Source: Candidatus Hermodarchaeota archaeon
GTDB lineage: Archaea > Asgardarchaeota > Hermodarchaeia > Hermodarchaeales > Hermodarchaeaceae
Assembly (NCBI GenBank): GCA_016839365.1
Contig: JAEOUH010000047.1
Coordinates: forward strand, 1 to 64,000
Direction of reading: 5' to 3'
Length of the DNA: 64,000 bases
Shown: one piece after another, positions 38,023-63,915 of the stretch
How positions within the stretch are numbered: position 1 is the stretch's first letter
Layout: each line of letters begins with the position of its first letter
The notes under the pieces: model-generated
Seen by the model: only the letters and a program-made list of their open reading frames with translations
What the model was told of the DNA's origin: nothing
The model's database searches: none
Position numbers and translations under genes: made by a program

Positions 38023-38134
38023 GCCGGGATAGCCAAGTGGTTACGGCGCGGGCCTTGAGAGATGCCATGAAGTGTCATCCAAGGTAGCCTGTGACCCTAC
38101 GGTCGCAAGGGTTCGAATCCCTTTCCCGGCGCCA
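38023..38134 (+). tRNA. tRNA-Ser(TGA) with canonical 37/38 intron (38060-38085, 26 nt)
   Basis: Cloverleaf with long variable arm and encoded CCA; BHB helix CTTG/CAAG, inner GATG/CATC. Confidence 0.92.
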
Positions 38135-38245
38135 TCCCACCCTATCATATTTGTCTCTTGCCCTTTTTGTTAGCGATGCAGCAAATCCGAATGTTAAAAA
38201 GTGAACAACCCTCTTGGTTTTCTGTGCTTCATCAGGTGATAATTC

Positions 38246-38668
38246 GTGGAATACGAATACTCCGACGAAATCACATCCGACCAGCTGTTCCACGCCTATG
38301 GAACGACCCTACCGGAGGTTTTCCGAAACGCAGGAAAAGCGTTGTTCGGTGTCATGTCTGATCTAGAGGAAGTCAAGCTCGAACACGAAATCGAAGTGAA
38401 AGCTGAAGGTATTGATGAGCAACACCTACTCTATGATTGGTTGTCAAACCTGTTACTAGAATTTGAAGTCGAAGGTGTGTTTTTCGCGGATTTCTCCATC
38501 AATTTAATCGAAGAAAGGCCAGGTGAAGGATTTCACTTAGTAAGTATAGCAAAAGGAAACAAGAAAATACCAGAACTTCGAACCCACGTTAAAGGGGTGA
38601 CGTTACACCGTTTCTCCCTTGAAAGAATTAATAACGGATACAGGGCTACCGTTGTAGTGGATGTTTAG
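38246..38668 (+). CDS. Archease
   Basis: ITSD..AYG..L.E.F.NA, LLYDWL, HVKGVT, VVDV; upstream of rtcB. Confidence 0.9.
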   Translation: MEYEYSDEITSDQLFHAYGTTLPEVFRNAGKALFGVMSDLEEVKLEHEIEVKAEGIDEQHLLYDWLSNLLLEFEVEGVFFADFSINLIEERPGEGFHLVSIAKGNKKIPELRTHVKGVTLHRFSLERINNGYRATVVVDV

Positions 38669-38697
38669 AATCACATATCATTAAGGGGTAATCAAGT

Positions 38698-40146
38698 ATG
38701 AAGGAAAAATTAAAGCAGCAAGACGAGTTTCGCTGGTGGCTTGACAAATCAGCGCGTCCTCGCATGAACGTCGGGGCAAAGATAATCGGTTCGAAAGAGA
38801 TCATCAATACCTTAGAGGACGCAGCTGTTGAGCAACTAACCAACGTAGCAACGCTTCCTGGTCCAATTGAACCGGTTCTGGCCATGCCTGACGCTCATTG
38901 GGGATATGGGCTTCCGATGGGAGCCGTTGGCGCTTTTGATGCTGAAGAGGGGATTATTTCCGCAGGGTGTACAGGTTTTGATATCAACTGTGGCGTCCGC
39001 CTCATTCGCACTAATCTTAGTGTTGAAGATGTCCAACCCAAGTTACAACAGCTAGTTGAGGAGCTATTTAATCGAGTTCCTGCGGGAGTCGGTTCTCAAG
39101 GTAAAATTCGATTAAGTGATAGTCAGTTTAGTGATGTTATTCGGTGGGGAGCTAAGTGGGCGATTGATAATGATCGGGGGGTACCAGCGGATTTAGCCCA
39201 TTGTGAGGAAGGAGGTTATATGGAGGGAGCCGCCATGCAGGCACCTCAAGTTAGTGAAAAGGCACGACGTCGCGGACGTCCACAACTTGGTACGCTTGGA
39301 GCAGGAAACCATTATCTAGAGGTTCAGAAGGTTGAGAAAATTTTTGATGAACCTGTTGCCAAAGTCTTTGGTCTGGAGAAAGGGCAAATAGTGGTGATGC
39401 TTCACTGTGGATCCCGTGGATTTGGCCATCAGATTGCAACCGATTATTTAGAGAGTATGGCTGTAGCAGTTAAGAAATATAACATATGGCTTCCAGATCA
39501 ACAACTCGTCTGTGCACCTGCAAACTCTCCTGAAGGGCAGGACTATTATGCTGCGATGAAGGCAGCAGTGAATTTTGCCTTTTGTAACAGACAGGTTATG
39601 ACCCATTGGATTCGACAAGGTTTTGAAGCGGTCTTTGGTCGAGATTGGGAATCGCTGGGGATGCACCTTGTTTATGACGTGACGCATAATATCTGCAAGT
39701 TCGAAACCCATGAGGTGAATGGATTGAAACGCGACATGTATTTGCATCGGAAAGGTGCGACGCGCGCGTTCGGGCCAGGCAACCCCAAAATCCCTGAAGA
39801 CTACCGATCAGTTGGTCAACCCGTCCTAATCGGTGGCTCAATGGGAACCGCATCCTATGTTCTAGTTGGCACAGAACAGGCAATGAAAGAAACCTTTGGA
39901 TCCACCTGTCATGGAGCAGGTCGAGCAATGTCTCGAAAAGCAGCGATTCGCAAGTATCATGGACGAGATATCAAAAACGCACTTGAAGCCAAAGGAAAAG
40001 TGGTTCGTTCCATGGGTACAAAGATACTAGCTGAAGAAGCGCCCAATGCCTACAAAGATGTCCATGTTGTTGTAGACTCAGTCCATGGCGCGGATATCTC
40101 ACGCAAGGTCGCAAGTCAGATACCATTGGGTGTTGTGAAAGGCTAG
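38698..40146 (+). CDS. rtcB: tRNA-splicing ligase RtcB
   Basis: MPDAHWGYG, GFDINCG, GTLGAGNHY, HRKGAT, HGAGR, EEAP.AYK. Confidence 0.96.
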   Translation: MKEKLKQQDEFRWWLDKSARPRMNVGAKIIGSKEIINTLEDAAVEQLTNVATLPGPIEPVLAMPDAHWGYGLPMGAVGAFDAEEGIISAGCTGFDINCGVRLIRTNLSVEDVQPKLQQLVEELFNRVPAGVGSQGKIRLSDSQFSDVIRWGAKWAIDNDRGVPADLAHCEEGGYMEGAAMQAPQVSEKARRRGRPQLGTLGAGNHYLEVQKVEKIFDEPVAKVFGLEKGQIVVMLHCGSRGFGHQIATDYLESMAVAVKKYNIWLPDQQLVCAPANSPEGQDYYAAMKAAVNFAFCNRQVMTHWIRQGFEAVFGRDWESLGMHLVYDVTHNICKFETHEVNGLKRDMYLHRKGATRAFGPGNPKIPEDYRSVGQPVLIGGSMGTASYVLVGTEQAMKETFGSTCHGAGRAMSRKAAIRKYHGRDIKNALEAKGKVVRSMGTKILAEEAPNAYKDVHVVVDSVHGADISRKVASQIPLGVVKG

Positions 40147-40161
40147 GTTTGGTATTCAAGA

Positions 40162-41049
40162 ATGCTATCAAAAGAAGCTAATCAGATTCCATTTGCGATA
40201 TCTATTGCCATACCAACCTCCTTCATTGACGTTGACCAAAGTCGAGAGCAACAAACCCAGCATATCGGACGAATTGCCCGAGCTGCAGCAATCTTTCAAG
40301 TCGATGATATTATCATCTATCGGGATAAGATGAATTCAAAACAAATGAAGAACCTACAGTTCGTCAGCCGGGTCCTTGAATATATGGAAACACCACAATA
40401 TCTTCGAAAACACCTCTTTGGAAAGATGCCCGATTTGCAATACGTAGGAAGCCTCCCTCCACTTCGAACACATCATCATCCTCTTGTGAAAGAATCATCG
40501 AAGCTTCGGAATGGCGAATTTCGAGAAGGGGTGGTACTTACAGCCAAAGGAAAAAATGTTGTAGATGTCGGCGTCGAATCACCTTTACCACTCTTACAAT
40601 TCAAATCCACTCATCTGCTACAACGAATCACAGTACAAATTCGAAGAGATAAATCCGGGAAAGTGACCGCACACCCGAGTTCTCCTCCTCGATCCAAACA
40701 ATATTGGGGATACTCTGTCAAGGGTGTGGAATCCTCTTTGGGTGACTTCTTGGTGAAAAAAACGAATTATCCTTTCGTTATTGCTACGAGTCGGAGAGGA
40801 AGACCAATTGCGGAAGAAGCGAGTAAAATTAGAAGTCAGTGGGAGAAATTCCATCGACTACTATTGCTTTTTGGGAGCTATAAAGAGGGGCTTGCAGAGA
40901 TTCTTCAGCGGGACCAAATTGATGTAGCCTCAGTTTCGAATCATATTATCAATCTAGTTTTCAATCAGGGCACAGCAACCATTCGAACAGAGGAGGCGGT
41001 ATTTATGGGGCTCTCCGCATTCAGATTACTTGAACAACTAAAGGATTAG
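40162..41049 (+). CDS. SPOUT-family RNA methyltransferase (MTH1/SPOUT1-like)
   Basis: GRIARAAAIFQVD, ETPQYLRK, NQGTATIRTEEA. Confidence 0.88.
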   Translation: MLSKEANQIPFAISIAIPTSFIDVDQSREQQTQHIGRIARAAAIFQVDDIIIYRDKMNSKQMKNLQFVSRVLEYMETPQYLRKHLFGKMPDLQYVGSLPPLRTHHHPLVKESSKLRNGEFREGVVLTAKGKNVVDVGVESPLPLLQFKSTHLLQRITVQIRRDKSGKVTAHPSSPPRSKQYWGYSVKGVESSLGDFLVKKTNYPFVIATSRRGRPIAEEASKIRSQWEKFHRLLLLFGSYKEGLAEILQRDQIDVASVSNHIINLVFNQGTATIRTEEAVFMGLSAFRLLEQLKD

Positions 41050-41053
41050 CAGT

Positions 41054-41587
41054 CTATACTTCTTCTTGGATTTCTATTTGATCACTGGTGGCGATGAGAA
41101 GCTCATAGGATCCTGTACCCGTGAAATAGCCATCTCGTGTAACCTGGATTGTAATGTTGTGGTATCCTGAAGAGACATTGGGAATTCGAAGATGTAACTC
41201 GGTGGGACTGGATTCTATTTTCTGAATGGTAATGTTGAGATTTCCAAGGAAAGCCTCAAGAACCGCATTCTCTGGAATTTCGTTCTTTGGAAAGCCCACG
41301 ACAACTGTTAGCTTGAGCTCTTCGCCTGGCTCTGCGACTCTGAGTTCTGGACCCAAAACCTTGACATCAATTCGATGGCTCCAGTATACATAGCTTGCAG
41401 GAAGCAAAAAAAGTAGAAATAACACGAGATAAACGAGGGCACCTTGTAGAATCGCTATGATGAGGTCGTCACGAACTACTATTGTGGGTGCGATGAAGGG
41501 AAGCAACAAGACTGCTACGGCTCCGTAGACGATAAGACTCCCACAAATTACGAGGGTTAGAGTTGAACGAGGATTACTATCTGTCAC
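41054..41587 (-). CDS. Hypothetical protein, two N-terminal TM helices plus a beta-rich domain
   Basis: ORF with hydrophobic N-terminus. Confidence 0.6.
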   Translation of the reverse strand: MTDSNPRSTLTLVICGSLIVYGAVAVLLLPFIAPTIVVRDDLIIAILQGALVYLVLFLLFLLPASYVYWSHRIDVKVLGPELRVAEPGEELKLTVVVGFPKNEIPENAVLEAFLGNLNITIQKIESSPTELHLRIPNVSSGYHNITIQVTRDGYFTGTGSYELLIATSDQIEIQEEV

Positions 41588-41696
41588 AGTTAAAGGGATG
41601 TTAATCTAATGCTAAATAGCATTTCGATTAAGCAACGAGTATTCTATTAATTTTAAAGCGAATGAATTTTCCAGACTCCCTTGAAAACGTAAAATC

Positions 41697-42005
41697 TTAC
41701 TTCAGGGTTATTTCGATGAAGACTTCATCGGGCACCCGGATTCGCATAATCTGGCGCATTGTCCTTTCATCAGCTTCTAAATCAATTAAGCGTTTGTGGA
41801 TTCGCATTTGCCAATGATCCCAAGTTGGTGTTCCTTCTCCACAAGGTGATTTTCGCGTCTGAACTTTCAGAGTCTTTGTGGGTAAAGGAATAGGACCTGA
41901 CATCTGAACACCTGTTCTGGATACAATGGATAGGACTTGGTTACAGACTTCGTTTAGCTTTGGAATGTCTGTACTGGAAAGTCGAATCCGAGCTTTCTGC
42001 GCCAT
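41697..42005 (-). CDS. rps10: 30S ribosomal protein S10
   Basis: [23 protein letters not shown]. Confidence 0.97.
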
Positions 42006-42149
42006 ATTAACTACACCAAATTGACTTGGGAATCAACCCGAATGTTTGCTCCCTTTTAACTTTTTTTGCACACCGAAAGCGTATCCAATTGATGCACCTT
42101 GGAGAATAGAAAAAGAAAGGGAAGAAGAATAGTGATAGCAGGGCTACCT

Positions 42150-43451
42150 CTACTTCTTCTCCTCGGTGATTTTTCGAACAACGCCTACAGCAACTGTTCG
42201 TCCACTATCCCGGATTGCAAAGCGACCTAACTGTTTCATATCTGCATAGGTCTCCAGACAGATTGGGGTAACAGGTCGGAGTTTTACTAGTGCAGATTCG
42301 CCTTGCTTAATGAAGTCGGGTTTCTCTTGTACCGTTTCTCCGGTTCGCGGATCAATCTTAGCGACGATTTCAGTGAAGGTGGCTGCTACTTGGGCGGTGT
42401 GTGCGTGCAAAACAGGAGTATATCCTGCAGCAAGAGCACGGGGGTGGAAAATAACGATGATTTGCCCCTCGAACTCAGACACAACGCGTGGTGGCTTATC
42501 GAGATGCCCCATCACATCGCCACGGCGAATCTCACCTTTCCCGATACCTCGGACATTGAATCCGATATTGTCACCAGGTTCAGCGCTGTCCAAGCGTTCG
42601 TGGTGCATTTCAATGGTCTTAATTTCACCTTCTTTGCCAGGTGGCATGAAGATGACTTTGTCACCGATTTTCATTTTTCCAGTTTCAACCCGCCCCACAG
42701 GAACTGTGCCAACACCTGTGATGGTGTACACGTCCTGAACAGGAACCCGAAGGGGTTGATCAACGGGTTTGGGTGGAAGGACAAATTCATCAATTGCTTC
42801 AAGCAACGATGGTCCCTTGTACCATTCCATGTTAGAGCTGGCTTCAGTCAACAGATCACCGGTCCATGCAGATACAGGAACAAAGTTGATCTTGCTTGGG
42901 TCAAACTGTGCACCTTTCAACAGGTCTGAGACTTCAGACTTGATCTCTTCGTACCGATCTTTCGACCAGGCGGGTGTTGAGTCATCCATTTTGTTGACGG
43001 CAACGACAAGCTGCTCGATGCCCAGAGTTCGTGCGAGGAAAGCGTGCTCGCGCGTCTGACCACCAGCACCCACGCCAGCTTCAAACTCACCCTTACGCGC
43101 TGAAACCACTAGAATTGCAGCATCAGCTTGACTGGCTCCGGTAATCATGTTCTTGATGAAGTCAGCGTGACCCGGAGCGTCAATAATAGTGAAATAGTGT
43201 TTCTGGGTCTCAAATCGGCGGAACGCAAGGTCAATGGTCAGCCCACGTTCCCGCTCTTCTTTGAGACGGTCCATCACGTAAGCGAACTTGAAGGATCCTC
43301 GATCCATCTCTTCGGCCAGCTTCTCGAGCTTTGCCATCTCTTGTTTTGATAATGCTCCAGTCTTGTAGAGCATGTGCCCCATCAACGTTGATTTACCATG
43401 GTCTACATGACCGATGATAATTAGGTTGATGTGTGGTTTCTTTTCCGACAT
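42150..43451 (-). CDS. tuf: Elongation factor 1-alpha
   Basis: GHVDHGKST, DAPGH, NKMD, LGRFAIRD; start set at MSEKKPH. Confidence 0.97.
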   Translation of the reverse strand: MSEKKPHINLIIIGHVDHGKSTLMGHMLYKTGALSKQEMAKLEKLAEEMDRGSFKFAYVMDRLKEERERGLTIDLAFRRFETQKHYFTIIDAPGHADFIKNMITGASQADAAILVVSARKGEFEAGVGAGGQTREHAFLARTLGIEQLVVAVNKMDDSTPAWSKDRYEEIKSEVSDLLKGAQFDPSKINFVPVSAWTGDLLTEASSNMEWYKGPSLLEAIDEFVLPPKPVDQPLRVPVQDVYTITGVGTVPVGRVETGKMKIGDKVIFMPPGKEGEIKTIEMHHERLDSAEPGDNIGFNVRGIGKGEIRRGDVMGHLDKPPRVVSEFEGQIIVIFHPRALAAGYTPVLHAHTAQVAATFTEIVAKIDPRTGETVQEKPDFIKQGESALVKLRPVTPICLETYADMKQLGRFAIRDSGRTVAVGVVRKITEEKK

Positions 43452-43612
43452 TGTATTCAACTCGTTTTTTGCTAACTTAAGCTGGCATAAAATATGCAGG
43501 TTATGGCACATCAAGTGGGGCGTATAAAACTCTTTTGGCGTTATGGGTTCCCAGAAGGGTTCGAAAACCTGTTAGATGCCTTGTGAGATTGTCAATGTGG
43601 GAAAGGGTATTC

Positions 43613-44251
43613 CTAGCGGGCTGAGAGTGCCATGCGTTCTTTTTCTTCTCGTCGTCGTACGGCGTTGCTTCGAGAGTCGCCACTTGCAGCGGCGATGAGT
43701 TCATCTGCGATGATCTCTTCGATGGCTTCAATGGTACTGAAGCTTCGACGCCAGATGCTTTCGGAGATGAATCGAAGTGCCAAATCGATGCGACGGAGCG
43801 GAGCGACATCGCAGGCGGTGTGGTAACTTATCCCACCATATGAAATCCGCGTGGTTTCTTCACGAGGAGCTGTGTTTTCGATTGCTTCGATTAGAATTTG
43901 GAGTGGATTCTGATTAGTTCGTAGATGTATTACTTCGAAGGCAGACCGGACTATTCGGATGACAGTGGATTTTTTCCCAGTGATGAGTCCGGATTGTCGT
44001 GCGCTTTGACTTCGTCGGCTGGCCCAACCAGGTGTCATGATGCGGTTAATGAACCGTTCGACAATTGGAACTTGGCGTTTTCCAAACCGCCGATGTTCGT
44101 GACGACCGAAAGTGTGGGGGACAATTACTGGACTAAGGCTAATGTATTTTGCTAGGCCCTGATCGCGGATTTGGATATCTTTTGTGCTCCAGCGACCAAG
44201 CACTTTGATTTCAGGAAAAGTTGTTGTCGGATTGGGAGTTTCAGCACTCAT
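43613..44251 (-). CDS. rps7: 30S ribosomal protein S7
   Basis: PHTFGRH, NPLQIL..AIEN.APREE, DVAPLRR; start set at MSAETP. Confidence 0.96.
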   Translation of the reverse strand: MSAETPNPTTTFPEIKVLGRWSTKDIQIRDQGLAKYISLSPVIVPHTFGRHEHRRFGKRQVPIVERFINRIMTPGWASRRSQSARQSGLITGKKSTVIRIVRSAFEVIHLRTNQNPLQILIEAIENTAPREETTRISYGGISYHTACDVAPLRRIDLALRFISESIWRRSFSTIEAIEEIIADELIAAASGDSRSNAVRRREEKERMALSAR

Positions 44252-44271
44252 CTTTGATTTACACCTTTGGG

Positions 44272-44715
44272 CTAGCGTTGTGGTTTTTCGACCTTGCCAA
44301 TAATCATGGCTTCGAGAGATGCACCATTGCACTTGACAACTTTCCACCGAACACCGGGAAGGTCTCCAAATGATCTTCCGCGAGCGCCTCCAATTCCTTC
44401 GACGATGACTTCGTCGTGTTCATCGACATAAGTGAGTGCACCATCACCAGGGAGAAAGGCTGTGATTTGCCTGCCATTGCGAATTAATTGTACGCGCACA
44501 CATTTGCGGATTGCTGAGTTTGGTTGTTTTGATTCAATACCCACTTTCTCTAAAACGATGGCACGTGCTTGTGGGCTTCCTTCAAGTGGGTCGGCCTTGA
44601 CATCAAGGCGTAACATCCGCCGTTTATAATATCGATCTTTCCAGCGGAACTTCTTACGCTTTTTCTTCAGGGTGCGGCCAGCAAATTCTCCTGATGGTGA
44701 TTTTGATCCAGGCAA
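44272..44715 (-). CDS. rps12: 30S ribosomal protein S12
   Basis: [25 protein letters not shown]. Confidence 0.97.
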
Positions 44716-44800
44716 TCTCACTTTTCCTCGTAATTATGTAGGGTGCTGCGATTCCGTGAAGGAGCTTAAAACTTTTGTCATCTATCGGTTGATGCGAAGG

Positions 44801-45265
44801 TTATCCAGAGGTTTCAGGGGTTGGTTCGGTAATAATAATCGCATCAATACCATGATGACGCTTTGCCAGAAGCCGAGCTCGTTCTATATTACGGCCATTT
44901 CTACCAATCACGCGCCCCCGGTTCTCACTATTAACAGTGACAACAGCAACGCGGCGTCCTTTAGATTGTTCTTGGACATCGACGGTAGAGACTTTTGCAG
45001 GGGCTAGTGCATTGCGTACGAATGACTCGGGTGTGTCAGCATCTTCCACAACATCAATATCACGTTTGAGCATGGTTCTCGCTCGTTTTATGGTCATGCC
45101 CCGGCGACCAATAGCTAATCCAAGATGCCCTGGACTCACTACGAATATGATGCGTTCTCCATCTTGATCGACGACACAGTCTTTGACCTCAGCGCCTGTG
45201 ATGTCACTGAAGAGTGCCATCAGTTTGATTTCTTCAATGTTCAATTTTATGTCAGAGGTCGTCAC
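44801..45265 (-). CDS. nusA: Archaeal NusA (KH domains)
   Basis: AIGRRG and VIGRNG KH motifs; conserved operon position. Confidence 0.93.
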   Translation of the reverse strand: MTTSDIKLNIEEIKLMALFSDITGAEVKDCVVDQDGERIIFVVSPGHLGLAIGRRGMTIKRARTMLKRDIDVVEDADTPESFVRNALAPAKVSTVDVQEQSKGRRVAVVTVNSENRGRVIGRNGRNIERARLLAKRHHGIDAIIITEPTPETSG

Positions 45266-45573
45266 TTCTTACTCGCCTCAGTTAGAGCAGAAATGTCTGC
45301 ATCTCCTGGCTCTAATACAGCCATTGCAGCCACCATATGTGGGCGTCCACATATTTGGCCTAAATCCCAACTGTTACTTTGAAATTCATGAATCGGCACT
45401 CTGTTTGCTTTTGCGAGCATATCAACTTCGGTAATCACTTCACTTGGCGCATTTGCTGCCAAGATGACTACACGAGGAGAGCCTGTTCGGAGTAAATGAA
45501 GTGTGCGATTAGCTCCGAACACAGTTTTTCCGGACTTCACAGCTAATCTTATTGCAGTTTCAGCATCCATCAA
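45262..45573 (-). CDS. rpl30e: 50S ribosomal protein L30e
   Basis: AVKSGK..FG, LGQICGRPH, EPGDADI. Confidence 0.95.
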   Translation of the reverse strand: MMDAETAIRLAVKSGKTVFGANRTLHLLRTGSPRVVILAANAPSEVITEVDMLAKANRVPIHEFQSNSWDLGQICGRPHMVAAMAVLEPGDADISALTEASKK

Positions 45574-45777
45574 GAATCACTCTTTAGTTTTCTTATTGCA
45601 TGCATTACGTCTTGTAATGAAGCTTGCAACACACCGTCGCATATAAGAGCTACGGAAGCGAATTGCGCGTTTGGCAGAATTTCTACGCTCCCTTTTAAGT
45701 TCTGTGCACACTCCGTTAAACTTCTAGCCATTTACATAAAATGACATCACAGAGGGGTTTATACACCCGCAATGGTG

Positions 45778-46992
<1,215 letters not shown>

Positions 46993-49641
46993 TCACTTCT
47001 CCTGGCTTAAAACGCGTTCAATGATTACATCAAGATTTACAGCCTTGCCATGATCGCTTCGAGCGGGGTCAACGCCATCTTCGCCATATTTGAATTGGAT
47101 GATTTCTCCGTTTGAATTTCGTACAGTGCCATCGTATTCGACTTTGATGTCTTGGAGCGCATTGATGAGTCGGCGTTGCATATACCCACTAGTGCTGGTT
47201 CGAACAGCAGTATCCACTAGACCTTCTCGACCTCCCATTGCATGGAAGAAGAATTCGATGGGGTTCAATCCTTTTCGGTAACTGGCAACCACAAATCCTC
47301 GAGCTTGTGGAGACAAATCGCCTTGAACAAAGTGGGGGAGCGTTCGCCTCCGATACCCTCGGGAGATCCGTTGACCACGAACCGCTTGTTGTCCAACACT
47401 GGCAGCCATTTGTGCCAAGTTAAGTGGGTTACCTTTCGCACCTGTGCCAGTCATTATTACCGCATGCTTATCAAGTCCAAGTTGTTGTGCCGCCACTTCG
47501 CCGGCTTCATCACGTGCACGAGCAAGAATCTCAATCATTTTCATTTCGAAGGTTTCCTCAATTGAACGACCTGGAAGCCGCTGAAGTTCATCTGCTTCAT
47601 AGATTTGAACTAACTGACTCCCTTCTTCTTCTGCGTCCTTGAGAATCTGTTCAATTTGACGTATGGCAGTTGGTGTGAGAATGACATCATCAATTCCCAT
47701 GCTAAAGCCCATGTTGGTGATGAGGACTACAAGCAGGGGACAGATGGCGTCGAGAAATCGTCGAGCTGCAGAGTTTCCATAGTCCTTTGCGATTCTGTGT
47801 AGAACACTTTCAGGTTGTGCAGCTCCGATTGCCTTCTTATCAATTACACCGGTTAATAGCTGACCGTCGCGAATGAGCACGTAGGCATCATATGGGCATT
47901 TTTCTTTTTGGCACTTATCGCATTTTTGGCAAATTCGGGCTTTCAAAGATAGGTTCAGACCCTTTGGCAACAGCATGCTAAAGATTTGTTTCCCGGTCCA
48001 CATGGGTTCAGGATCTTTGATGGTGGGTGGTGGAAGGTCTTCCCGGTAGCCAGCTGAAGCTAAAAGCTGGCAGGTTTGGCGTTTGTTGAATATCGAGCTC
48101 TTTCGCGTAAGTAAGAAAGCAGAAGATATGTAGTCTTGAATCCCACCGATGATAGGGCCACCATAACGAGGGCTAAGAATCTGCTCTTGAACTAGCATTA
48201 GGATTCGAGCTTCAGCCCGAGCCTCTTCGCTTTGAGGAACATGGAGGTTCATTTCGTCGCCATCGAAATCTGCGTTATAAGGCGGGCAGACAACAAGGTG
48301 AAGCCGAAATGTCCGGTATTCCATTACCTTCACTTCGTGGGCCATGATAGACATGCGGTGAAGTGACGGCTGTCGGTTGAAGAGAACAATATCCCCTGAC
48401 CGAAGGTGTCTTTCAATCACGTAGCCTGGAGCCAATCCATCAGCGTTTGTCTTCCGATCTTTTACATAGCGTAGATCAATTCGTTTCCCATCAGGACGCA
48501 CAACATAATTACATCCGGGATAACCCTGAGGACCCTCAAGGACGAGTTCCCGCATATCTTCGATATTCCATTCGGTGACCCGCTCAGGAACTGTTAGGGT
48601 TTTGGCAATTTCTAAAGGAACACCCACTTCATTGATGGATAGGTTAGGATCAGGCGAAATTACTGTTCGGGCTGAGAAGTCGACACGTTTTCCGGAAAGA
48701 TTGCTTCGGAATCGTCCTTCCTTTCCTTTTAATCGTTGAGCTAATGTTCGTAAGGCACGGCCTGATCGATGGCGCGCTGGTGGAATGCCGGAGACTTCAT
48801 TGTTGAAATATGTGGTTATATGATATTGAAGCAGCTCCCAAAGGTCTTCCACAATCAGTTGTGGTGCGCCAGCTTCGATGTTTTCCCTGAGTCGTTGATT
48901 AATTCGGATGACATCCACAAGCTTGTGTGTAAGGTCATCTTCTGATTTTACACCAGATTCTAATGTGATGGACGGACGAACGGCTACTGGAGGTACAGGT
49001 TGGACAGTGAGAATCATCCATTCGGCCTTTGAGACACGGGTGTCGATGCCCATGAGGAAGGCATCTTCAGGGGTGATTCGTTCCAGTCGGTCGCGAACAT
49101 CAGTAGGCGTTAGACGGACACTGCCTTCCATCTTCTCTTCGTAGAAGGTTGTTGGTTTTTCGAACTTAATCTTGTATTGTTCGGCCTCGCAGTGGGGGCA
49201 GGTGGTGGCTTTTCCAGCTTCTTTTAGGACTTCATCAGCGATAACTTGGTCTAAATGACCGAATTTTTCAAAGTGCATATCAACTCGATTTTTGTATGTT
49301 TCTCGAGATTCCTCTTTCAGTTTTAATCGAGCACAGCGTCTACAGAGTGCCTTGAGGAATTTCTTAATCTCCTTCGCGAAACTGACGTGCACGACGGGGC
49401 GAGCCAGTTCAATGTGGCCAAAGTGACCGGGACATTCGCCGACTCGATTTCCACAGGATTTGCAGCGCTGACCAGGTTCAATTGTGCCTAGTTTGGGATC
49501 CATCAGTCCAGAGGATATGGGAAGACCATCTTCGTCGTAGGTGTCAGCTGTAATAACCTGTGTTACACTCATTTTACGAATTATCTCAGGGGAGAGAAGG
49601 CCGAACCAGACGCTTCCAATCTGTTTGAGTGGGTGTGACAT
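46993..49641 (-). CDS. rpoA1: RNA polymerase subunit A' (Rpo1N)
   Basis: YNADFDGDEMN, GGREGLVDTAVRT. Confidence 0.97.
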   Translation of the reverse strand: MSHPLKQIGSVWFGLLSPEIIRKMSVTQVITADTYDEDGLPISSGLMDPKLGTIEPGQRCKSCGNRVGECPGHFGHIELARPVVHVSFAKEIKKFLKALCRRCARLKLKEESRETYKNRVDMHFEKFGHLDQVIADEVLKEAGKATTCPHCEAEQYKIKFEKPTTFYEEKMEGSVRLTPTDVRDRLERITPEDAFLMGIDTRVSKAEWMILTVQPVPPVAVRPSITLESGVKSEDDLTHKLVDVIRINQRLRENIEAGAPQLIVEDLWELLQYHITTYFNNEVSGIPPARHRSGRALRTLAQRLKGKEGRFRSNLSGKRVDFSARTVISPDPNLSINEVGVPLEIAKTLTVPERVTEWNIEDMRELVLEGPQGYPGCNYVVRPDGKRIDLRYVKDRKTNADGLAPGYVIERHLRSGDIVLFNRQPSLHRMSIMAHEVKVMEYRTFRLHLVVCPPYNADFDGDEMNLHVPQSEEARAEARILMLVQEQILSPRYGGPIIGGIQDYISSAFLLTRKSSIFNKRQTCQLLASAGYREDLPPPTIKDPEPMWTGKQIFSMLLPKGLNLSLKARICQKCDKCQKEKCPYDAYVLIRDGQLLTGVIDKKAIGAAQPESVLHRIAKDYGNSAARRFLDAICPLLVVLITNMGFSMGIDDVILTPTAIRQIEQILKDAEEEGSQLVQIYEADELQRLPGRSIEETFEMKMIEILARARDEAGEVAAQQLGLDKHAVIMTGTGAKGNPLNLAQMAASVGQQAVRGQRISRGYRRRTLPHFVQGDLSPQARGFVVASYRKGLNPIEFFFHAMGGREGLVDTAVRTSTSGYMQRRLINALQDIKVEYDGTVRNSNGEIIQFKYGEDGVDPARSDHGKAVNLDVIIERVLSQEK

Positions 49642-49656
49642 TGTTTTTTCCTCTTA

Positions 49657-53019: not shown

Positions 53020-53435
53020 AATCCACCCTCAGAGACGAATCTGCTCAACATGTGACAGGATTCTTACCCTCACCAGACGGCACCATGCTTCCATGAGCCC
53101 ATATAGCTATAGTCCGCATGAGAAACGTAGAACCCTGTGTCTATGAAGCAGAACGGGAACATTGTCTCATCAGTAATTTTGCCCGGGCAGAAACATGCGG
53201 CGCCAAACCAGCCGTCGCTCCAGCGAAACAGACCGTCTGCGAAGTTACGCGGACAATGTACAAACGCCTTTTTAAGCTTTCGATTAAACGCTTAAAATAC
53301 ACAGAAAAAACCTACACTATCTGCCCCATCAACCACTGAAAAGGAAAAATTGCGCCCGTTTCATGGTTAGGGGTTTATATTTGAACAGCAGGACAGAATT
53401 TCTTCATAATTTGAGTTTTGCGAGAGGTTTGAGCA

Positions 53436-53975: not shown

Positions 53976-54019
53976 CTCCCCTTTTCCCACCAAAGAGAAA
54001 CCAACGAGAAGAGAAGAAG

Positions 54020-54128
54020 TGGCGCCCGTTCCGGGATTCGAACCCGAGTCCTAGGAGATCCGCAGACCCATGAATCATCATTGATCGTTGACAGTCCCAG
54101 ATGATAGACCTGGCTACACTAAACGGGC
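54020..54128 (-). tRNA. tRNA-Asp(GTC) with canonical 37/38 intron (54058-54088, 31 nt)
   Basis: Cloverleaf on minus strand, encoded CCA; BHB CTGT/GCGG. Confidence 0.9.
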
Positions 54129-54199
54129 GCGGTGTTGTGTGGATTATTTGGGGAAATTTAAAGGTTACTCTGGTCGGAGTGGCTGGTTTGGGTGAGGGT

Positions 54200-54332
54200 T
54201 GGTCCCGGCGCCCGGATTTGAACCAGGAACCATCTGGTGTCTGCGTTGGTTGACACCCAGTCATTGCCATGATGGCTCGGGGTGCGGTGTATACCTACAG
54301 CCAGACGCTCTACCAGGTTGAGCTACGCCGGG
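54200..54332 (-). tRNA. tRNA-Tyr(GTA) with canonical 37/38 intron (54239-54294, 56 nt)
   Basis: C1-G72, anticodon stem TCTGG/CCAGA, BHB CTGT/GCAG, encoded CCA. Confidence 0.92.
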
Positions 54333-54373
54333 ATTGCGAAAAATAGGTTCGCGTGAGTCGCTTATAAGAGTTT

Positions 54374-54865
54374 TCAAAGGGTTTTGGTGAAAAGTTGGGT
54401 GAGAGTAGTGATGATTTCGTTGGCAGCGTCTTGGACGGGTTTAGAGAGGGGTTGAGTGAATTCGTCGGTGAGGGGTTGGATGCCGAGGATGAGGATAGTG
54501 GTAGCGATGTTGTTTTCGAGGTATTCGAGAAAGAAGGTGAGGGGGAGTTGGTGGGAGGAGAAGGCGATACCACCAATAGAGTCTTTATCAATGAGTTTAA
54601 TGGTGCCAGCTTCAGCTTGCATGAGGGCAGCATCGATGAGGAGGATGAGATGGGGGTGGGAGTCGATGATATGACTGAGGAAGTTTTCAGGAACCGTGCT
54701 GGCATTGATGAGTTCCACATGGGGTGGATTGCGACCTTGGAGCTGGTCAATGATGTAGGGACCGATGCCATCGTCAGCTTTGAGGTCGTTTCCGATGCCG
54801 AGGATGGCGATTTTAGGTGCGTTGGTGAAGGCTTCTGTAAGACGGTGTTGCCAGGATATCATCAA
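54374..54865 (-). CDS. hycI: Hydrogenase maturation protease (HycI-like)
   Basis: LGIGNDLKADDGIG, TVPEN, IDAA, SSHQLPL, GIQP. Confidence 0.88.
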   Translation of the reverse strand: MMISWQHRLTEAFTNAPKIAILGIGNDLKADDGIGPYIIDQLQGRNPPHVELINASTVPENFLSHIIDSHPHLILLIDAALMQAEAGTIKLIDKDSIGGIAFSSHQLPLTFFLEYLENNIATTILILGIQPLTDEFTQPLSKPVQDAANEIITTLTQLFTKTL

Positions 54866-54931
54866 GTCAGGAAAACGGGAAGAATGTTATATAGCTTCGC
54901 CTCTTGTCGCTTCAAATAGTGGTGCATAGGC

Positions 54932-55522
54932 ATGGTAGAGGAAAACGAACAGCATTCTTCAGAAGAGGAGCGCCTTCCGCTTCCTGATGAGCCTATTCCA
55001 GCGAGATTAACTCGGGGAAAAGTAGTGGTTGAAGGTGAGTATGCGTCTGTGCTCTATGAGGCGGGGTATTATGGTACGATCAAGGGTGAGCAGAAATTAG
55101 AACTTGAGCCCGAAGAAGCGCTCTTATTGGCTCGGCGACAGCGTATAGCGGTGAGTCTGCCACAAAAGGAGGTGCTGGAATTTTCTTCGCTGCTGATGCG
55201 CTTATCAGAGGGGCAGCCGGGACTTTGGACTCGTTTTCTTGTATACAGTGATCTTCGAAGCCGAGGGTATGTAGTGCGGACGGGGTATGGGAAAGGATTG
55301 TTGTTCCGCGTATATCCAAGAGGAGCTAAGATCAATGAGGCAACTGCTCAGTATTTTGTTTGCGCGATTTCCGAGGGCTCTCCCTTGAAGGTGGAAGAGC
55401 TGGATGCGTTTAGCAAACAGGCGAAACGTAACCGGAAGAAGTTGATGCTTGCTGTGTTAGACCGGCAGGGGGAGACGACGTACTACCTTGTGTCTCCTGC
55501 TGATATTGTTGCGGAAAAATAG
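54932..55522 (+). CDS. endA: tRNA splicing endonuclease subunit (probably the structural, non-catalytic subunit)
   Basis: VYSDLRSRGYVV, FRVY, KKLMLAVLD..GETTYY; the catalytic His position appears to read TAQY. Confidence 0.85.
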   Translation: MVEENEQHSSEEERLPLPDEPIPARLTRGKVVVEGEYASVLYEAGYYGTIKGEQKLELEPEEALLLARRQRIAVSLPQKEVLEFSSLLMRLSEGQPGLWTRFLVYSDLRSRGYVVRTGYGKGLLFRVYPRGAKINEATAQYFVCAISEGSPLKVEELDAFSKQAKRNRKKLMLAVLDRQGETTYYLVSPADIVAEK

Positions 55523-55538
55523 AGTAACTGTAGAAGAA

Positions 55539-55661
55539 TGGCGGGCCCGCCGGGAATTTCGACGTCAACGTTATCGATCGTATTCGAACCCGGGGTTACC
55601 AACTTAGGAGGCTGGCGCCTTCTCCGGGGAAGAAGAGCCTATCCGGCTTGGCCACGGGCCC
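55539..55661 (-). tRNA. tRNA-Arg(CCT) with two non-canonical introns (D-loop 55622-55640; T-loop 59/60 55556-55582)
   Basis: Removing the 19-nt and 27-nt BHB introns gives a 77-nt cloverleaf with anticodon arm CCAGC-CTCCTAA-GTTGG. Confidence 0.88.
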
Positions 55662-55709
55662 AGGGAATACTAGTGTGCAAGGAAGTTGATGCTTTATGCA
55701 TGTTTCGTT

Positions 55710-56399
55710 TTATCTCGTGAGTAACTTCGCACCTTTATCTTGACCGACATAGACAATATCGGCTTGAGTGGGAAAAAGGCCGTTTTCGATAACTCCAGGA
55801 ATGGCATTCAGTTGGGAATCTAGTTGTTTTGGATCAGTGATTTGCGGAAATGAGACGTCGATAATGAAGTTGCCGTTATCTGTGATTACTGGTCCAGCCT
55901 TTCGTTGGGCTTGCCGGAGCATCGGCGAGCCACCAAGACGTTGAATGCGATCTATAGAGAGAGCCAAAGCAGCGGGAAGCACTTCAACTGGAATGGGGAC
56001 CGTCGTTCCTAGGATATCCACGAGTTTTGAACTATCAACAATGATGATTAGTTGTTGCGCGGCCTCAGCCAAGATTTTTTCGCGGAGAAGGGCGGCGCCA
56101 CCACCTTTGATCAGTGCAAGATTTGGATCCACCTCATCCGCTCCATCCACAGCACAAGCTAAACTGGTGACAGCACCCAATGGGACTGTGGTAATTCCTA
56201 CATCATGTAATCGTAACTCAGTTGCATAGGAACTTGGCACAGCAGTGATGGTAATGTTTTCAGAGGCAATTTTTTCCACTAATAGGTCAATGAATATCTC
56301 AACCGTTGACCCTGTACCCACCCCCAAGCACATCCCATCAGAAACATGTGTTACCGCCGCTTCAGCAGCAAATCGTTTTTCTTCATCAACCGTCAACAT
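55710..56399 (-). CDS. rpiA: Ribose-5-phosphate isomerase A
   Basis: GVGTGST, DGADEVD, KGGGAALLREK, ITDNGN. Confidence 0.95.
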   Translation of the reverse strand: MLTVDEEKRFAAEAAVTHVSDGMCLGVGTGSTVEIFIDLLVEKIASENITITAVPSSYATELRLHDVGITTVPLGAVTSLACAVDGADEVDPNLALIKGGGAALLREKILAEAAQQLIIIVDSSKLVDILGTTVPIPVEVLPAALALSIDRIQRLGGSPMLRQAQRKAGPVITDNGNFIIDVSFPQITDPKQLDSQLNAIPGVIENGLFPTQADIVYVGQDKGAKLLTR

Positions 56400-56501
56400 C
56401 AGCCACCTGTACGCTCAACTGGCACATAGCACTTCAACCATTTGACCCTTAAAAATTCATCATCTCCCAACGAAATCCAGTTCGCACACCCAGGAAAAGA
56501 G

Positions 56502-56578
56502 TGGAGCCTCGGGCGGGATTTGAACCCGCGACCCTCGCCTTACCAAGGCGATGCGCTACCACGCTATGCCACCGAGGC
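56502..56578 (-). tRNA. tRNA-Thr(GGT), intronless
   Basis: Cloverleaf, anticodon arm TCGCC-TTGGTAA-GGCGA, encoded CCA. Confidence 0.93.
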
Positions 56579-56591
56579 TCAACAGGCTAAA

Positions 56592-56774
56592 TGGTGCCGA
56601 GGGCGGGCGTTTCGTGAAGCCCTACAGGCTTCAGTTCGATCCCGCGACCTCCAGATTTCTCCGGTGCGCCAGCAATCATCATATTTTGACCCTGGGGCAA
56701 AGCCCTATGAGTATCGCCCTGACATTTCAAGAATGTTCCAAGTCTGGCGCTCAACCAGGCTAAGCTACCTCGGC
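56592..56774 (-). tRNA. Elongator tRNA-Met(CAT) with three introns (30/31: 56713-56743; 37/38: 56657-56705; 59/60: 56609-56634)
   Basis: Three BHB motifs; the spliced product is a 77-nt GCCGAGG...CCAGA-CTCATAA-TCTGG...CCTCGGC-ACCA cloverleaf. Confidence 0.85.
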
Positions 56775-56944
56775 AGCACTAACCCACCGACCGTACCTTT
56801 TAAGCATTATTCTCAGGGCTTCCCCGATTCACAATTTTTCACACCTATTCACTAACACGAAGCAATTTTAAGCACCAAAACAACTTTGACACGCCACCAA
56901 CTGTGCGGGGCGTGTCCAAGGGTCACCGCCACAAAGACTAAGCC

Positions 56945-57055
56945 GCGGGGGTATCTCCCCCGATAGAGACCCCACAGCCAAGCTTGGTCAAAGGCGCAGG
57001 ACTTAAGATCCTGTCTCGTAGGAGTTCCCGGGTTCGAAGCCCGGCCCCCGCACCA
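56945..57055 (+). tRNA. tRNA-Leu(TAA) with intron at position 8/9 (56953-56975, 23 nt)
   Basis: BHB GGGG/CCCC, inner TCTC/GAGA; spliced 88-nt type II cloverleaf with CAGGA-CTTAAGA-TCCTG. Confidence 0.88.
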
Positions 57056-57156
57056 ATTTTCAAAAGATTTTTGTGCAATCTTGGAAGGTAGCGATTCGGA
57101 AAGCCACAAGCATCTTCCGAATCATTAATCAACAGTACTTGCACTAAATCAAATGA

Positions 57157-57231
57157 GCCTCCGTAGCATAGTGGTGGTGCTTTGGCCTTGTAAGCCAATG
57201 GTCCCGGGTTCAAATCCCGGCGGAGGCTCCA
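57157..57231 (+). tRNA. tRNA-Thr(TGT), intronless
   Basis: Cloverleaf, TTGGC-CTTGTAA-GCCAA, encoded CCA. Confidence 0.93.
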
Positions 57232-57485
57232 TTTCAAATAATGAGTTTTTAGATAATTTTGTAAAAAGCACCTTTAGAATGAAGTGTATCGAAATACATG
57301 GAATTTCATAGGGTTTAGACCAATGCGGTTGTTTATCGAATAGAGCCACAATGATTTACTCAGGTTGAAGATAATGAAACTGGGTTTTATTATCTGCAGA
57401 GCCCTTGGTATAATTAAAATTAGATTACAGCAAGAAGTTTCTAGATAAGATTTATCAAGAACCCGTCTTTTCCTATACGCGCATC

Positions 57486-57621
57486 GGGCCGGTAGTCTAG
57501 TTATCCGGTTACAACTTGTGCTGGACTAGAGCGGTATGATGCGAGAAGGAAAACGGGTTCTGTTTTTCTCGCAAAGTTTGGGACCTCGTGGTCCCGAGTT
57601 CAAATCTCGGCCGGCCCACCA
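57486..57621 (+). tRNA. tRNA-Pro(TGG) with two non-canonical introns (D-loop 57503-57531; 30/31 57546-57575)
   Basis: BHB CTAG/CTAG and TGCG/CGCA; spliced 77-nt cloverleaf with CGAGG-TTTGGGA-CCTCG. Confidence 0.88.
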
Positions 57622-57676: not shown

Positions 57677-57797
57677 GTGGCGCGGTCATAGAAGCTGGGT
57701 CACACCCGGTCTCGTCAGATCCCGGAAGTTAAGCCGGTTTCGTCGCCCTGAGTACTGATATCCGAGAGGTGTCGGGAAAAGTGTGAACTGCGCCACT
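57677..57797 (+). rRNA. rrf: 5S rRNA (stand-alone)
   Basis: Terminal stem GTGGCGC/GCGCCAC, CACCCGGTCTCGTCAGATCCCGGAAGTTAAGCC, AGTACT...GGGAA motifs; followed by a T-rich tract. Confidence 0.9.
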
Positions 57798-59001: not shown

Positions 59002-59081
59002 AATTACTCTCTGCAATCGAATTTTGGCTTGTGGTAAAGCTTTTTCAACAGAATACAAAAGCAAGACATGAGGATTGCGTC

Positions 59082-59576: not shown

Positions 59577-59699
59577 TGGAAGCTTTTTTGAGTAACCGTT
59601 TACGTTTGTTTGTAAGCAATGAAAGGATAATAGCCACCAACGAGGACGAATCCGAAGACTATGATCTGATGATGATTCGTGCAAATTTGTGGCAACACT

Positions 59700-59935
59700 G
59701 GAGCAGCGTTGAGGGTTATGCGGCATGTGACAGGCTCCTGCATGATTTAAGACGTGTCGTCAAGAGGTGACTGTGGGGGCAACCCACGATGTCCACACTT
59801 CAACGCCGGGTCGCATAGGCTCACAATGCCCGACATATTAAGAGAGGACTCGTCGGAGGAATGAAGGCGCTCCGCCCACCGATGATGATGGGGCGTTAGT
59901 GTATCGGTCAGCAGAGCAGAAGCGACCCATCACTT
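59700..59935 (+). ncRNA. Unassigned highly structured intergenic RNA
   Basis: GC-rich stems with G-U pairs on the + strand, a K-turn-like motif and a GCAA loop; family not identified. Confidence 0.5.
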
Positions 59936-59956
59936 CTCTATATTATCATCATTCAG

Positions 59957-60820: not shown

Positions 60821-60829
60821 CTCCAGGAT

Positions 60830-61996: not shown

Positions 61997-62059
61997 TGCC
62001 AGTGATATATAAGAGCCAGTTAGGTCAATGACCCTGGTAGGTAGTTTTGGCGAATTATC

Positions 62060-62479
62060 ATGTGCCCCCTACGTGAAGCGACCCAAGCGAAGCAGGAGCG
62101 ACTGGAAGAGCGTTTTGTAAAAGGTGTTCAGCTCTTGATTAACCTCTCGGAAGACGGGGTAACAATAGTAGTAGAGGGGATTAAGGATATCACTGCACTA
62201 CGGGGATTAGGACTGAGTGGACCTATTTACATGCTTGCGGGTCACAGTGTCGTTAGTTTAGCTGATGAATTGGCTAATATTCCTCGTTTACTCATCCTAT
62301 TTGATTTTGATCGACGGGGAGGGCAATTGACAAGACGACTAACTGATCAATTAGAAGGGCGAGGGGTCTCAATACTTCATCGAGAAAGGCACCAGTTAAG
62401 GCGAGCGTTTTGTTGGCGTGTGAGGGTAATTGAGGGACTGAAGGGAATTGAGAAAACTCCGAAAGGCACAAAATTTTAA
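62060..62479 (+). CDS. Small Toprim-domain protein (RNase M5-like)
   Basis: IVVEGIKD..AL, LFDFDRRG. Confidence 0.8.
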   Translation: MCPLREATQAKQERLEERFVKGVQLLINLSEDGVTIVVEGIKDITALRGLGLSGPIYMLAGHSVVSLADELANIPRLLILFDFDRRGGQLTRRLTDQLEGRGVSILHRERHQLRRAFCWRVRVIEGLKGIEKTPKGTKF

Positions 62480-62615
62480 TGTGGCTCATTCGTGAGGCTA
62501 ACTGTATCACAATTACCAAATTACCTAATCATCATCACAAATCACTTCAAAGTGGCGTTATCAATATCACACGCCCGCACTTACATATCACAAATCATTT
62601 CACAAGGTGACGATT

Positions 62616-63915
62616 ATGGGAACAAATGCAGAAGGTACTGGTACTACGAAGTATTGTATTCATGGTAAAATCGAGATAGATGGAGTAGTTGAGACCCCCG
62701 ATGTTGTAGGTGCTCTCTTCGGTCAAACGGAGGGCCTACACTTCATATCGGCGATGTGAAGGGGTAATCGGTGAAGATTTAGATCTAAGAGAATTACAAC
62801 AGTCGGGGCGGATTGGTCGAATAAAAGTCGAGCTTCACACTGAGAGTGGAAAATCAAAGGGCACTATCACTATCCCATGTAGCCTAGATCGGACGGAAAC
62901 TGCAATCCTTGCTGCAGCAATGGAAACAGTGGACAGAGTTGGTCCTTGTGCGGCTAAAATAACCCTTGAAAAACTCGAGGATGTCCGCGAAGAAAAGCGG
63001 CAACAAATCGTAAATCGTGCAGTAGATTTGCTACGGGATTGGGAAGGGGAAATCTCTCCAGATTCTCAGGAAATGACGGATACGGTTCTTCAACAGGCAC
63101 GTACTGCAGAGATTATCAAACTCGGCAAAGAAAAGCTGCCTGCAGGGCCGGAGGTAGAGATATCAAAGACCATTATCATCGTAGAGGGTCGAGCAGATGT
63201 CTTAGCCCTGTTGAGATCTGGTGTCAAGAACGCTGTTGCAGTTGAGGGGACATCGGTTCCCAAATCTATTGCTGACATTGCCAAGGGGAAAACCGTGATT
63301 GCATTTCTCGATGGAGATCGTGGTGGGGATCTAATTCTAAAGGAGCTTGCACAAACCATCAAGGTTGATTATGTGGCTAGAGCACCTACTGGTAGAGAGG
63401 TAGAAGAACTCACTCACAAAGAGGTTACTAAAGCTCTCCGTAATAGGATTCCAGCAGGGCAGATTTTAGGAAAAGCGCCAGCTAAGGCGAAGCCAAAGGA
63501 GAAGAAGCGTACCCGTCGGACCCCCGAGAAGATCAAGAAACCGCGTCGCACAACAACGCGTACCACCTCTCGCATTACCACACGAACGAAAGTTGAAGCA
63601 AAACCAGAGCCAAAGGTGAAGGATTTGGGAATCCCAGAGCCGGTGCTTGATTCGGCTCAAAAGATTCAACGGACGATGATGGCAGTCATCATGGACGAGA
63701 AGTTTAAGCAATTAAAGGAGACTCATGTGGGTGAACTTGCTAACGATTTGCAGGAACTTGATAAGGCTAAAGTGCTTATCCTTGATGGCGTTGTAACACA
63801 ACGCCTTATTGATATTGCCGAAGATCGTGGCGTCGAATTAATTATTGGGGTGCGAGTTGGCAATATTGTGAAGAAACCGGCGAAAATGCGTATCCACACT
63901 TTCGATGAACTGTGA
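62616..63915 (+). CDS. dnaG: Archaeal DnaG (exosome-associated primase-like protein), spliced: exon 1 62616-62739, exon 2 62768-63915, 423 aa
   Basis: Exon 1 TTKYCI...[14 protein letters not shown] with SD AAGGTGA; exon 2 [35 protein letters not shown]. Confidence 0.93.
62740..62767 (+). other. 28-nt BHB-type pre-mRNA intron in dnaG
   Basis: GCCT-ACA-CTTCATATC-GGC-GATGTGAAG-GGGT-AAT; contains an in-frame TGA; removal restores the frame and the EGLLGED motif. Confidence 0.88.

Follow-up and report, generated by a model that had tools for sequence, protein, structure and literature searches.

We analysed a stretch of 64,000 nucleotides (hereafter the window; assembly GCA_016839365.1, contig JAEOUH010000047.1, positions 1 to 64,000) from a Candidatus Hermodarchaeota archaeon, in which seven tRNA genes and the protein-coding gene dnaG are interrupted by bulge-helix-bulge (BHB) introns. 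Our reading, to which we give a probability of about 85%, is that this is a housekeeping stretch of a Hermodarchaeia genome whose interrupted tRNA and dnaG transcripts would be spliced by the endonuclease EndA together with RtcB and archease. We further consider it probable that Hermodarchaeia routinely splice mRNAs with their tRNA-splicing enzymes, and that they have gained such introns more than once. The genome, which the first-pass annotation of this DNA had left unplaced, falls among the Asgard archaea in Hermodarchaeia and shares its GTDB genus with Ca. Hermodarchaeum yapensis; the closest dnaG loci come from records named Candidatus Hermodarchaeota, Hermodarchaeum yapensis and Promethearchaeota.

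The dnaG reading frame that opens at the ATG at 62616 ends at a TGA at 62757-62759, with the remaining protein encoded in another frame. Cuts at the predicted BHB (Table 1) would restore the junction ...GQTEGL joined to LGEDLDL..., which is continuous in more distant Asgard genomes; in the predicted spliced RNA, position 62739 is joined to 62768 and the sequence reads ...GGGCCTAC followed by TCGGTGAAG.... An insert is found at the same codon in all 17 family relatives with a dnaG match (14 of the same genus and 3 of a sister genus), in agreement with the single mRNA intron that the first-pass annotation had proposed. These inserts are 28, 29 or 31 bases long and never a multiple of three, and unspliced dnaG RNA would therefore give a truncated protein in every relative.

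Alignment of the intron across 16 distinct sequences has 96.9% of its cells paired, against 39-55% when the partners are slid, and three pairs of the BHB are altered on both sides. Differences in the exons are mostly synonymous. Beyond the family, dnaG is contiguous at this site in the two more distant Asgard genomes examined, and contiguous homologues in more distant Asgard archaea form open frames of 411-438 aa. Outside the Asgard archaea we found no intron at this site: dnaG is uninterrupted in 54 loci from Bathyarchaeia and others, ten loci from Thermoproteota being unreadable with the motif used. The conservation of the insert within the family, as judged from these alignments, excludes an error of assembly and is strong evidence against a pseudogene.

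It is conceivable that the 28 bases are never removed, and that the protein is made by a programmed frameshift or ribosomal bypass, or as two polypeptides, or that the gene is after all a pseudogene. Splicing is a prediction here, the motif has a minimal outer helix, and a downstream GTG opens an open reading frame (ORF) of 401 aa that could in principle be translated alone. However, the three insert lengths would demand different frameshifts in different genomes, and the 41-codon first exon is conserved as protein across 18 genomes, as would not be the case for an untranslated leader or a pseudogene. Further arguments against an unspliced insert are the exact BHB geometry, with cuts that restore a conserved junction, the covarying hairpin and the complete splicing machinery encoded by the genome, and we hold such an insert to be quite improbable.

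An intron in the cbf5 pre-mRNA of Crenarchaeota was reportedly described by Watanabe in 2002 and by Yoshinari in 2006, and is treated by Yokobori in 2009 (PMC2738675). In the searchable literature, endonuclease splicing of an archaeal coding sequence has been reported since 2002 for crenarchaeal cbf5 only, and we found no mention of introns in dnaG or in Hermodarchaeia. The crenarchaeal intron resembles that of dnaG in being a short BHB intron within a coding sequence, cut between the second and third bases of the bulge; its motif is often relaxed, it is found in lineages with (alpha-beta)2 EndA, and it lies inside the catalytic Asp codon (PMC2738675).

Introns in other coding sequences were sought without reference to any motif, by running tblastn with 2036 stop-to-stop ORFs (at least 90 aa) of a distant Asgard genome, rebuilt from 75 stretches (1.42 Mb, one contig), and collecting collinear match pairs that are parted in this genome by extra bases. 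Among 979 ORFs with a clear match, two had short frame-breaking inserts, namely dnaG and cbf5 (on contig C6); this count is a minimum, the scan being blind to very short exons and to genes missing from the small reference. Several other split-gene candidates (C43:1216-2279, C87:23862-25023, and in-frame extras on C43, C49, C54, C71 and C83) were rejected as neighbouring genes fused in the reference or as open in-frame insertions.

The predicted cbf5 intron (C6:12840-12879; L191:1341-1380) is 40 nt long and has a perfect BHB, with the helix CTGG/CCAG, the bulges ATA and AAA and a 5-bp inner helix; splicing would restore ...GIINLD joined to KPPGPTSHEVV.... All 12 genomes of the genus that were read at the site have it, with a length of 40-43 bases in the nine whose BHB was resolved by script, and the three 42-base copies hold in-frame stop codons. 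Neither the sister genus nor seven other Asgard genomes have an intron at this site. The window's own intron lies in dnaG, and that of cbf5, between ...INLD and KPPGP, sits about 30 codons upstream of the crenarchaeal site and is therefore a separate gain. Splicing of crenarchaeal cbf5 has been shown experimentally, whereas that of the dnaG and cbf5 introns described here is predicted from sequence; both are candidates for introns that work like the crenarchaeal one, outside that intron lineage.

Two other Asgard genomes (L276 G029:C1:383500-384700 and L277 G024:C1:835600-836800) carry cbf5 BHB introns of 41 and 29 nt at the crenarchaeal site, splitting the catalytic Asp codon after its first base (GTL followed by DP). 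In two congeners (G005:C30:47536-49917 and G010:C9:50102-52492) the cbf5 match falls into two parts, separated by about 1.6 kb but inside a single 836-aa open frame, which looks like an intein or another large in-frame insertion.

By this distribution the dnaG intron would predate the split of the family's two genera, and the cbf5 intron would have arisen at a new site in one genus only. The first-pass annotation had proposed an intron proliferation that spread from tRNAs into mRNA. Its mRNA part gains from the dnaG intron, found across the family, and from the cbf5 intron of the genus, which the motif-free scan added; the direction from tRNA to mRNA is not shown, the mRNA introns resembling no other sequence of the genome. 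Indeed, a blastn-short search of all 12 window introns against the genome for a source or paralogues returned chance matches only.

If our reading is true, endonuclease-type introns repeatedly colonise essential protein genes in close prokaryotic relatives of eukaryotes, and crenarchaeal cbf5 is not a one-off. A second essential gene (dnaG) and a second cbf5 site would need endonuclease splicing, in the archaeal group nearest eukaryotes. Genomes with and without the cbf5 intron and the 30/31 intron of tRNA-Met (below) date the gains. The route by which BHB introns enter genes thereby becomes testable, as does the extent to which mRNA is served by the tRNA-splicing enzymes. Standard callers mis-annotate such genes, leaving dnaG truncated or mis-started, tRNAs missed and anticodons wrong, and completeness and tRNA-repertoire estimates for Asgard assemblies are therefore distorted.

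The tRNA genes of the window, nine in number and all within 38023-57621, were recovered by a search that used the encoded CCA end, acceptor stem and T-arm as anchors. Seven are interrupted, by eleven BHB introns in total (Ser 1, Asp 1, Tyr 1, Arg 2, Met 3, Leu 1, Pro 2). Four introns (in Ser, Asp, Tyr and Met) are at position 37/38 and seven are elsewhere: in the D-loop and at 59/60 in Arg, at 30/31 and 59/60 in Met, at 8/9 in Leu, and in the D-loop and at 30/31 in Pro. The first-pass annotation had arrived at the same count, including the seven non-canonical introns, which we obtained from the BHB and the cloverleaf. With default settings ARAGORN finds two window tRNAs, the intronless tRNA-Thr pair, and Rfam gives five above threshold plus one partial match; ARAGORN calls differ between the window and the whole contig, and three of its modes were pooled.

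The BHB rule that we applied requires a 3-base bulge on the 3' side of either strand of a 4-bp helix and places the cut behind the second base of the bulge. It was derived from the canonical Ser intron of the window and agrees with PMC2738675. A script found a BHB at each tRNA border needed to rebuild the cloverleaf, for 11 of 11 introns, with the central helix fully paired in nine and paired at three of four positions in two; with dnaG included, all 12 introns of the window have a BHB at their borders, 10 with four of four central pairs and 2 with three. For nine of the eleven tRNA introns, at most 20 of 5000 shuffles equal the BHB score at the same positions, the weak two, which relatives support instead (below), being those in the Arg D-loop and, in its unspliced context, at Met 37/38. 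The Ser intron has a fully paired central helix (4/4), flanked by an inner helix of 4 bp and an outer one of 7 bp, and 0 of 5000 shuffles equal it. After removal of the introns in silico, ARAGORN calls all seven tRNAs as full-length, at 77-88 bases including CCA, with the expected anticodons.

Two introns had competing registers. The Arg D-arm intron, if read as 20 bases at 25/26, has no BHB in any register; the helix CCGG/CCGG, with bulges ATA and AGA, gives 19 nt in the D-loop and changes to TCGG/CCGA in a relative, and we revised the intron on the grounds of the BHB rule and this covariation. A 28-nt register for the Pro 30/31 intron was rejected, as it would leave two surplus bases in the anticodon stem; the register adopted has the helix TGCG/CGCA with a 10-bp inner helix, and the Pro D-loop intron has the helix CTAG/CTAG. 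When introns are allowed, ARAGORN miscalls this Pro(TGG) gene as Ser(gct).

In the gene of the elongator-like tRNA-Met, the anticodon sits on a 7-nt micro-exon, ACTCATA (56706-56712). Orthologues were aligned from nine congeners. The 37/38 and 59/60 introns are present in all nine, and that at 30/31 is present in five and absent in four. In these four the gap matches, to the base, the 31-base intron predicted from the CGCC/GGCG BHB, and ...CCAG runs directly into ACTCATA.... The 37/38 helix is a perfect CTCA/TGAG in two congeners, and its BHB acquires a 5-bp outer helix only once the 30/31 intron is removed; the CTCA of the micro-exon takes part in both motifs. A computed solver favoured another solution for c56592-56774, a tRNA-Pro(TGG) with the loop CTTGGAA and a single 80-nt intron at 37/38. 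We rejected it and read the gene as a three-intron tRNA-Met because four congeners lack exactly the predicted 31 bases and because the Pro-like loop is not conserved (it is CTTGTAA or CTAGTAA in congeners); in addition, all three genes read as Pro begin with GGG.

The Met 30/31 intron is therefore polymorphic within the genus, and intron turnover is ongoing. Comparison with relatives, which the first-pass annotation had named as a way to check its introns, also yielded conservation or covariation for Arg and Leu; the Leu 8/9 intron is kept in four relatives and its hairpin has compensatory changes. In a sister-genus genome (G016; L229, C45, positions 517-594) ARAGORN calls the orthologous tRNA-Asp(GTC) as intronless, at 78 nt; if this call is right, the Asp 37/38 intron also varies within the family.

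The interrupted genes might alternatively be decaying pseudogenes, with working tRNAs supplied by intronless copies elsewhere in the genome, and indeed default tRNA finders miss most of these genes. The assembly is 84% complete and such copies could be missing from it, so that a missing second copy means 'not found' and not 'absent'. With this limit, no second gene was found for any of the seven tRNAs, by pooled ARAGORN calls, by the CCA-anchored census or by blastn with the spliced sequences. Other blastn matches were to different isoacceptors only (75-83% identity), and there was no second same-anticodon or near-identical gene. The window Met gene is the sole elongator-like Met(CAT) identified, the two other CAT genes being an initiator-like one on C76 and a tentative call on C15. 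Exons are conserved while the interiors of the introns vary and their helices change by compensation, and each spliced product is a regular cloverleaf with encoded CCA. We regard the decay of these genes as very improbable.

Across the genome we count about 43 tRNA genes, 14 of mature length and 29 (67%) interrupted, with lengths of 97-189 bases; they hold 40-45 introns, or about one per gene, by an approximate and partly hand-checked count. All of the approximately 43 genes found have an encoded 3' CCA. One of them, tRNA-Phe(GAA) at C85:24947-25059, has one D-arm intron and the same acceptor stem (GCCGAGG...A73) as the window tRNA-Met, and is miscalled Leu(gag) by ARAGORN.

The first-pass annotation had set this intron density against that of Thermoproteales. 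That frame no longer fits, as the genome is an Asgard one and denser tRNA interruption than in Thermoproteales has already been published for Asgard classes (PMC11291895; bioRxiv 10.64898/2026.10.13.758758). The published Asgard introns are like those described here in numbering several per gene, in being non-canonical in many cases, including the D-arm, and in having BHB borders; they are also often missed by standard annotators, have been gained repeatedly, and occur with two EndA paralogues. They differ in density, with 92-97% of genes interrupted and about 2.2 introns per gene there as compared with about 67% and about one here, and the tRNA intron load of this genome is middling for Asgard families in the published census, not extreme. 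The tRNA part of our results alone is thus one further lineage in a published pattern. Neither source mentions introns in protein-coding genes, and 'Hermod' is absent from the main text of the preprint. Thermoproteales tRNAs (Sugahara 2008, as cited in PMC11291895 and PMC3241643) likewise have up to three introns per gene, non-canonical positions, relaxed BHBs and a heterotetrameric EndA with the crenarchaea-specific loop (CSL); they belong to another phylum, and here no intron has a recognisable second copy.

Archease, RtcB and one EndA paralogue are encoded in the window. Archease is an activator of the RtcB ligase, and RtcB is a 3'-phosphate RNA ligase that joins exon halves. As in other RtcB-archease systems the two genes are an adjacent pair, both products are full-length relative to their Pfam profiles, and we saw nothing unusual in them. 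The first-pass annotation had listed an EndA subunit, RtcB and archease, and all three are recovered by Pfam; its EndA, however, is probably not the catalytic subunit, as it is without the catalytic His and without the specificity loop. Aligned over its whole length to M. jannaschii EndA (1a79), it keeps Tyr115 and Lys156 and has a Thr at the catalytic His125 (Thr or, in the alignment with its paralogue, Glu).

That paralogue, at C43:37398-37937, is 32% identical to the window EndA, which has a 9-residue gap where the paralogue has the CSL/L1 insertion. It matches the catalytic alpha subunit of A. pernix (3p1z_B) at 6e-46 and keeps the Tyr, His and Lys (...FAVYRRG..., ...GIDHS..., ...SVRKR...). 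Its loop GKPLGIRKPK aligns ungapped to A. pernix QPLDVEKPR, with a Lys on Lys44, a residue of the loop that confers broad EndA specificity (PMC3241643). We therefore take the C43 protein as the predicted catalytic alpha subunit with the specificity loop and the window EndA as beta-like, an arrangement of two paralogous subunits that matches (alpha-beta)2 EndA of A. pernix (3P1Z/3AJV; PMC3241643). It differs from it in that the beta-like protein is nearer to the subunit of the M. jannaschii homotetramer (4.5e-21) than to A. pernix beta (2e-6). Both paralogues are present in nearly all of the 30 Asgard relatives searched, which agrees with the report that Asgard archaea have (alpha-beta)2 EndA with an L1 loop (PMC5829648). 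The heterotetrameric type that the first-pass annotation had brought in from Thermoproteales is accordingly the one that these two sequences predict here.

We propose that primary transcripts would fold at the exon-intron borders into a BHB, a 4-bp helix bearing one 3-base bulge on either strand, and that the (alpha-beta)2 heterotetramer would cut after the second base of each bulge. Its beta-like subunit would come from 54932-55522 and its alpha subunit, with the loop that permits non-canonical sites, from C43; RtcB, activated by archease (38246-40146), would then join the exons. In tRNA-Met three rounds of cutting and ligation would assemble four exons, one of them of 7 bases, and in dnaG the removal of 28 bases would restore the reading frame of a 423-aa protein. 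We infer that cleavage and ligation occur, as well as their order, and that this EndA accepts an mRNA substrate.

Several points weigh against this proposal. Splicing at the 12 introns is a prediction from sequence. In the dnaG BHB a single base pair makes up the outer helix, and G-U pairs account for two of the four central ones. Two tRNA introns lack one of the four central pairs, and the BHB of the Arg D-loop intron is weak on its own, with 290 of 5000 shuffles as good. Finally, the beta-like EndA keeps two of three catalytic residues, and its non-catalytic role is deduced from one missing His.

The first-pass annotation had also drawn attention to the clustering of the enzymes with their substrates. 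The gene order stands, with archease and rtcB 3' of tRNA-Ser and endA among tRNA genes, and nothing shows that it is a functional unit. The archease-RtcB pair, EndA and the intron-bearing tRNAs could in theory form a 'splicing island' under common regulation, in which the supply of enzymes is tied to the load of substrate. The order tRNA-Ser(TGA)-archease-RtcB is constant throughout the family, the first two being adjacent in all 18 members and in at least three other Asgard families (G022, G023, G025), and tRNA genes flank the beta-like EndA gene throughout the family. But the EndA-tRNA neighbourhood was not detected outside the family, the predicted catalytic EndA subunit is encoded on another contig, and the genes lie on different strands with about 14 kb of ribosomal-protein, RNA-polymerase and EF-1alpha genes between them. 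The tRNA-Ser beside archease has no intron in G022 and G025, so that the linkage is independent of the intron. A splicing island is therefore unlikely, and the closeness of enzymes and tRNAs is best read as inherited gene order in a housekeeping region.

Table 1. Predicted splicing enzymes, tRNA genes and dnaG parts of the window
Feature	Position	Strand	Details
tRNA-Ser(TGA)	38023..38134	+	CCA encoded; canonical 37/38 intron 38060-38085, 26 nt, strict hBHBh'
Archease	38246..38668	+	Pfam PF01951, 112 bits, 1-136 of 136; starts 111 nt 3' of tRNA-Ser
RtcB	38698..40146	+	Pfam PF01139, 568 bits, profile 1-426 of 426
tRNA-Asp(GTC)	54020..54128	-	37/38 intron 54058-54088, 31 nt
tRNA-Tyr(GTA)	54200..54332	-	37/38 intron 54239-54294, 56 nt
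EndA paralogue, beta-like (putatively structural)	54932..55522	+	Pfam PF01974 and PF02778; N-terminal and nuclease-fold domains
tRNA-Arg(CCT)	55539..55661	-	two non-canonical introns: D-loop 55622-55640 (19 nt), T-loop 59/60 55556-55582 (27 nt)
tRNA-Thr(GGT)	56502..56578	-	no intron
tRNA-Met(CAT), elongator-like	56592..56774	-	introns 30/31 56713-56743 (31 nt), 37/38 56657-56705 (49 nt), 59/60 56609-56634 (26 nt)
tRNA-Leu(TAA)	56945..57055	+	8/9 intron 56953-56975, 23 nt, helix GGGG/CCCC
tRNA-Thr(TGT)	57157..57231	+	no intron
tRNA-Pro(TGG)	57486..57621	+	two non-canonical introns: D-loop 57503-57531 (29 nt), 30/31 57546-57575 (30 nt)
dnaG exon 1	62616..62739	+	41 codons and first base of a Leu codon; AAGGTGA 5 nt 5' of ATG
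dnaG intron (predicted)	62740..62767	+	28 nt; helix GCCT/GGGT, bulges ACA and AAT, 9-bp inner hairpin, 1-bp outer helix (relaxed HBh' type)
dnaG exon 2	62768..63915	+	Toprim domain (Pfam); predicted spliced product 423 aa

The surroundings have a housekeeping character. They include the ribosomal proteins L3, L4, S10, S7 and S12 and one of the L30e/L7Ae family, a NusA-like KH protein, RNA polymerase A' and A'', EF-1alpha, ribose-5-phosphate isomerase, a synthetase of the TrpRS/TyrRS class, a methyltransferase of the Trm5/Tyw2 type and a HycI protease. No 16S or 23S rRNA genes are present in the assembly; a 5S rRNA gene at 57678-57796 is uninterrupted.

At 59600-59950, in a 380-bp gap separating a cytidylyltransferase-like gene from the Trm5/Tyw2-like gene, there are several UGAUGA/CUGA words resembling C/D boxes; this segment has no Rfam match, and its fold is not above that of shuffles (z = -1.26). 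Just 5' of tRNA-Leu(TAA), the bases 56907-56931 resemble the 5' part of a tRNA (GCGGGGCGTGTCCAAGGGTCACCGC) and may be a remnant or a leader element.

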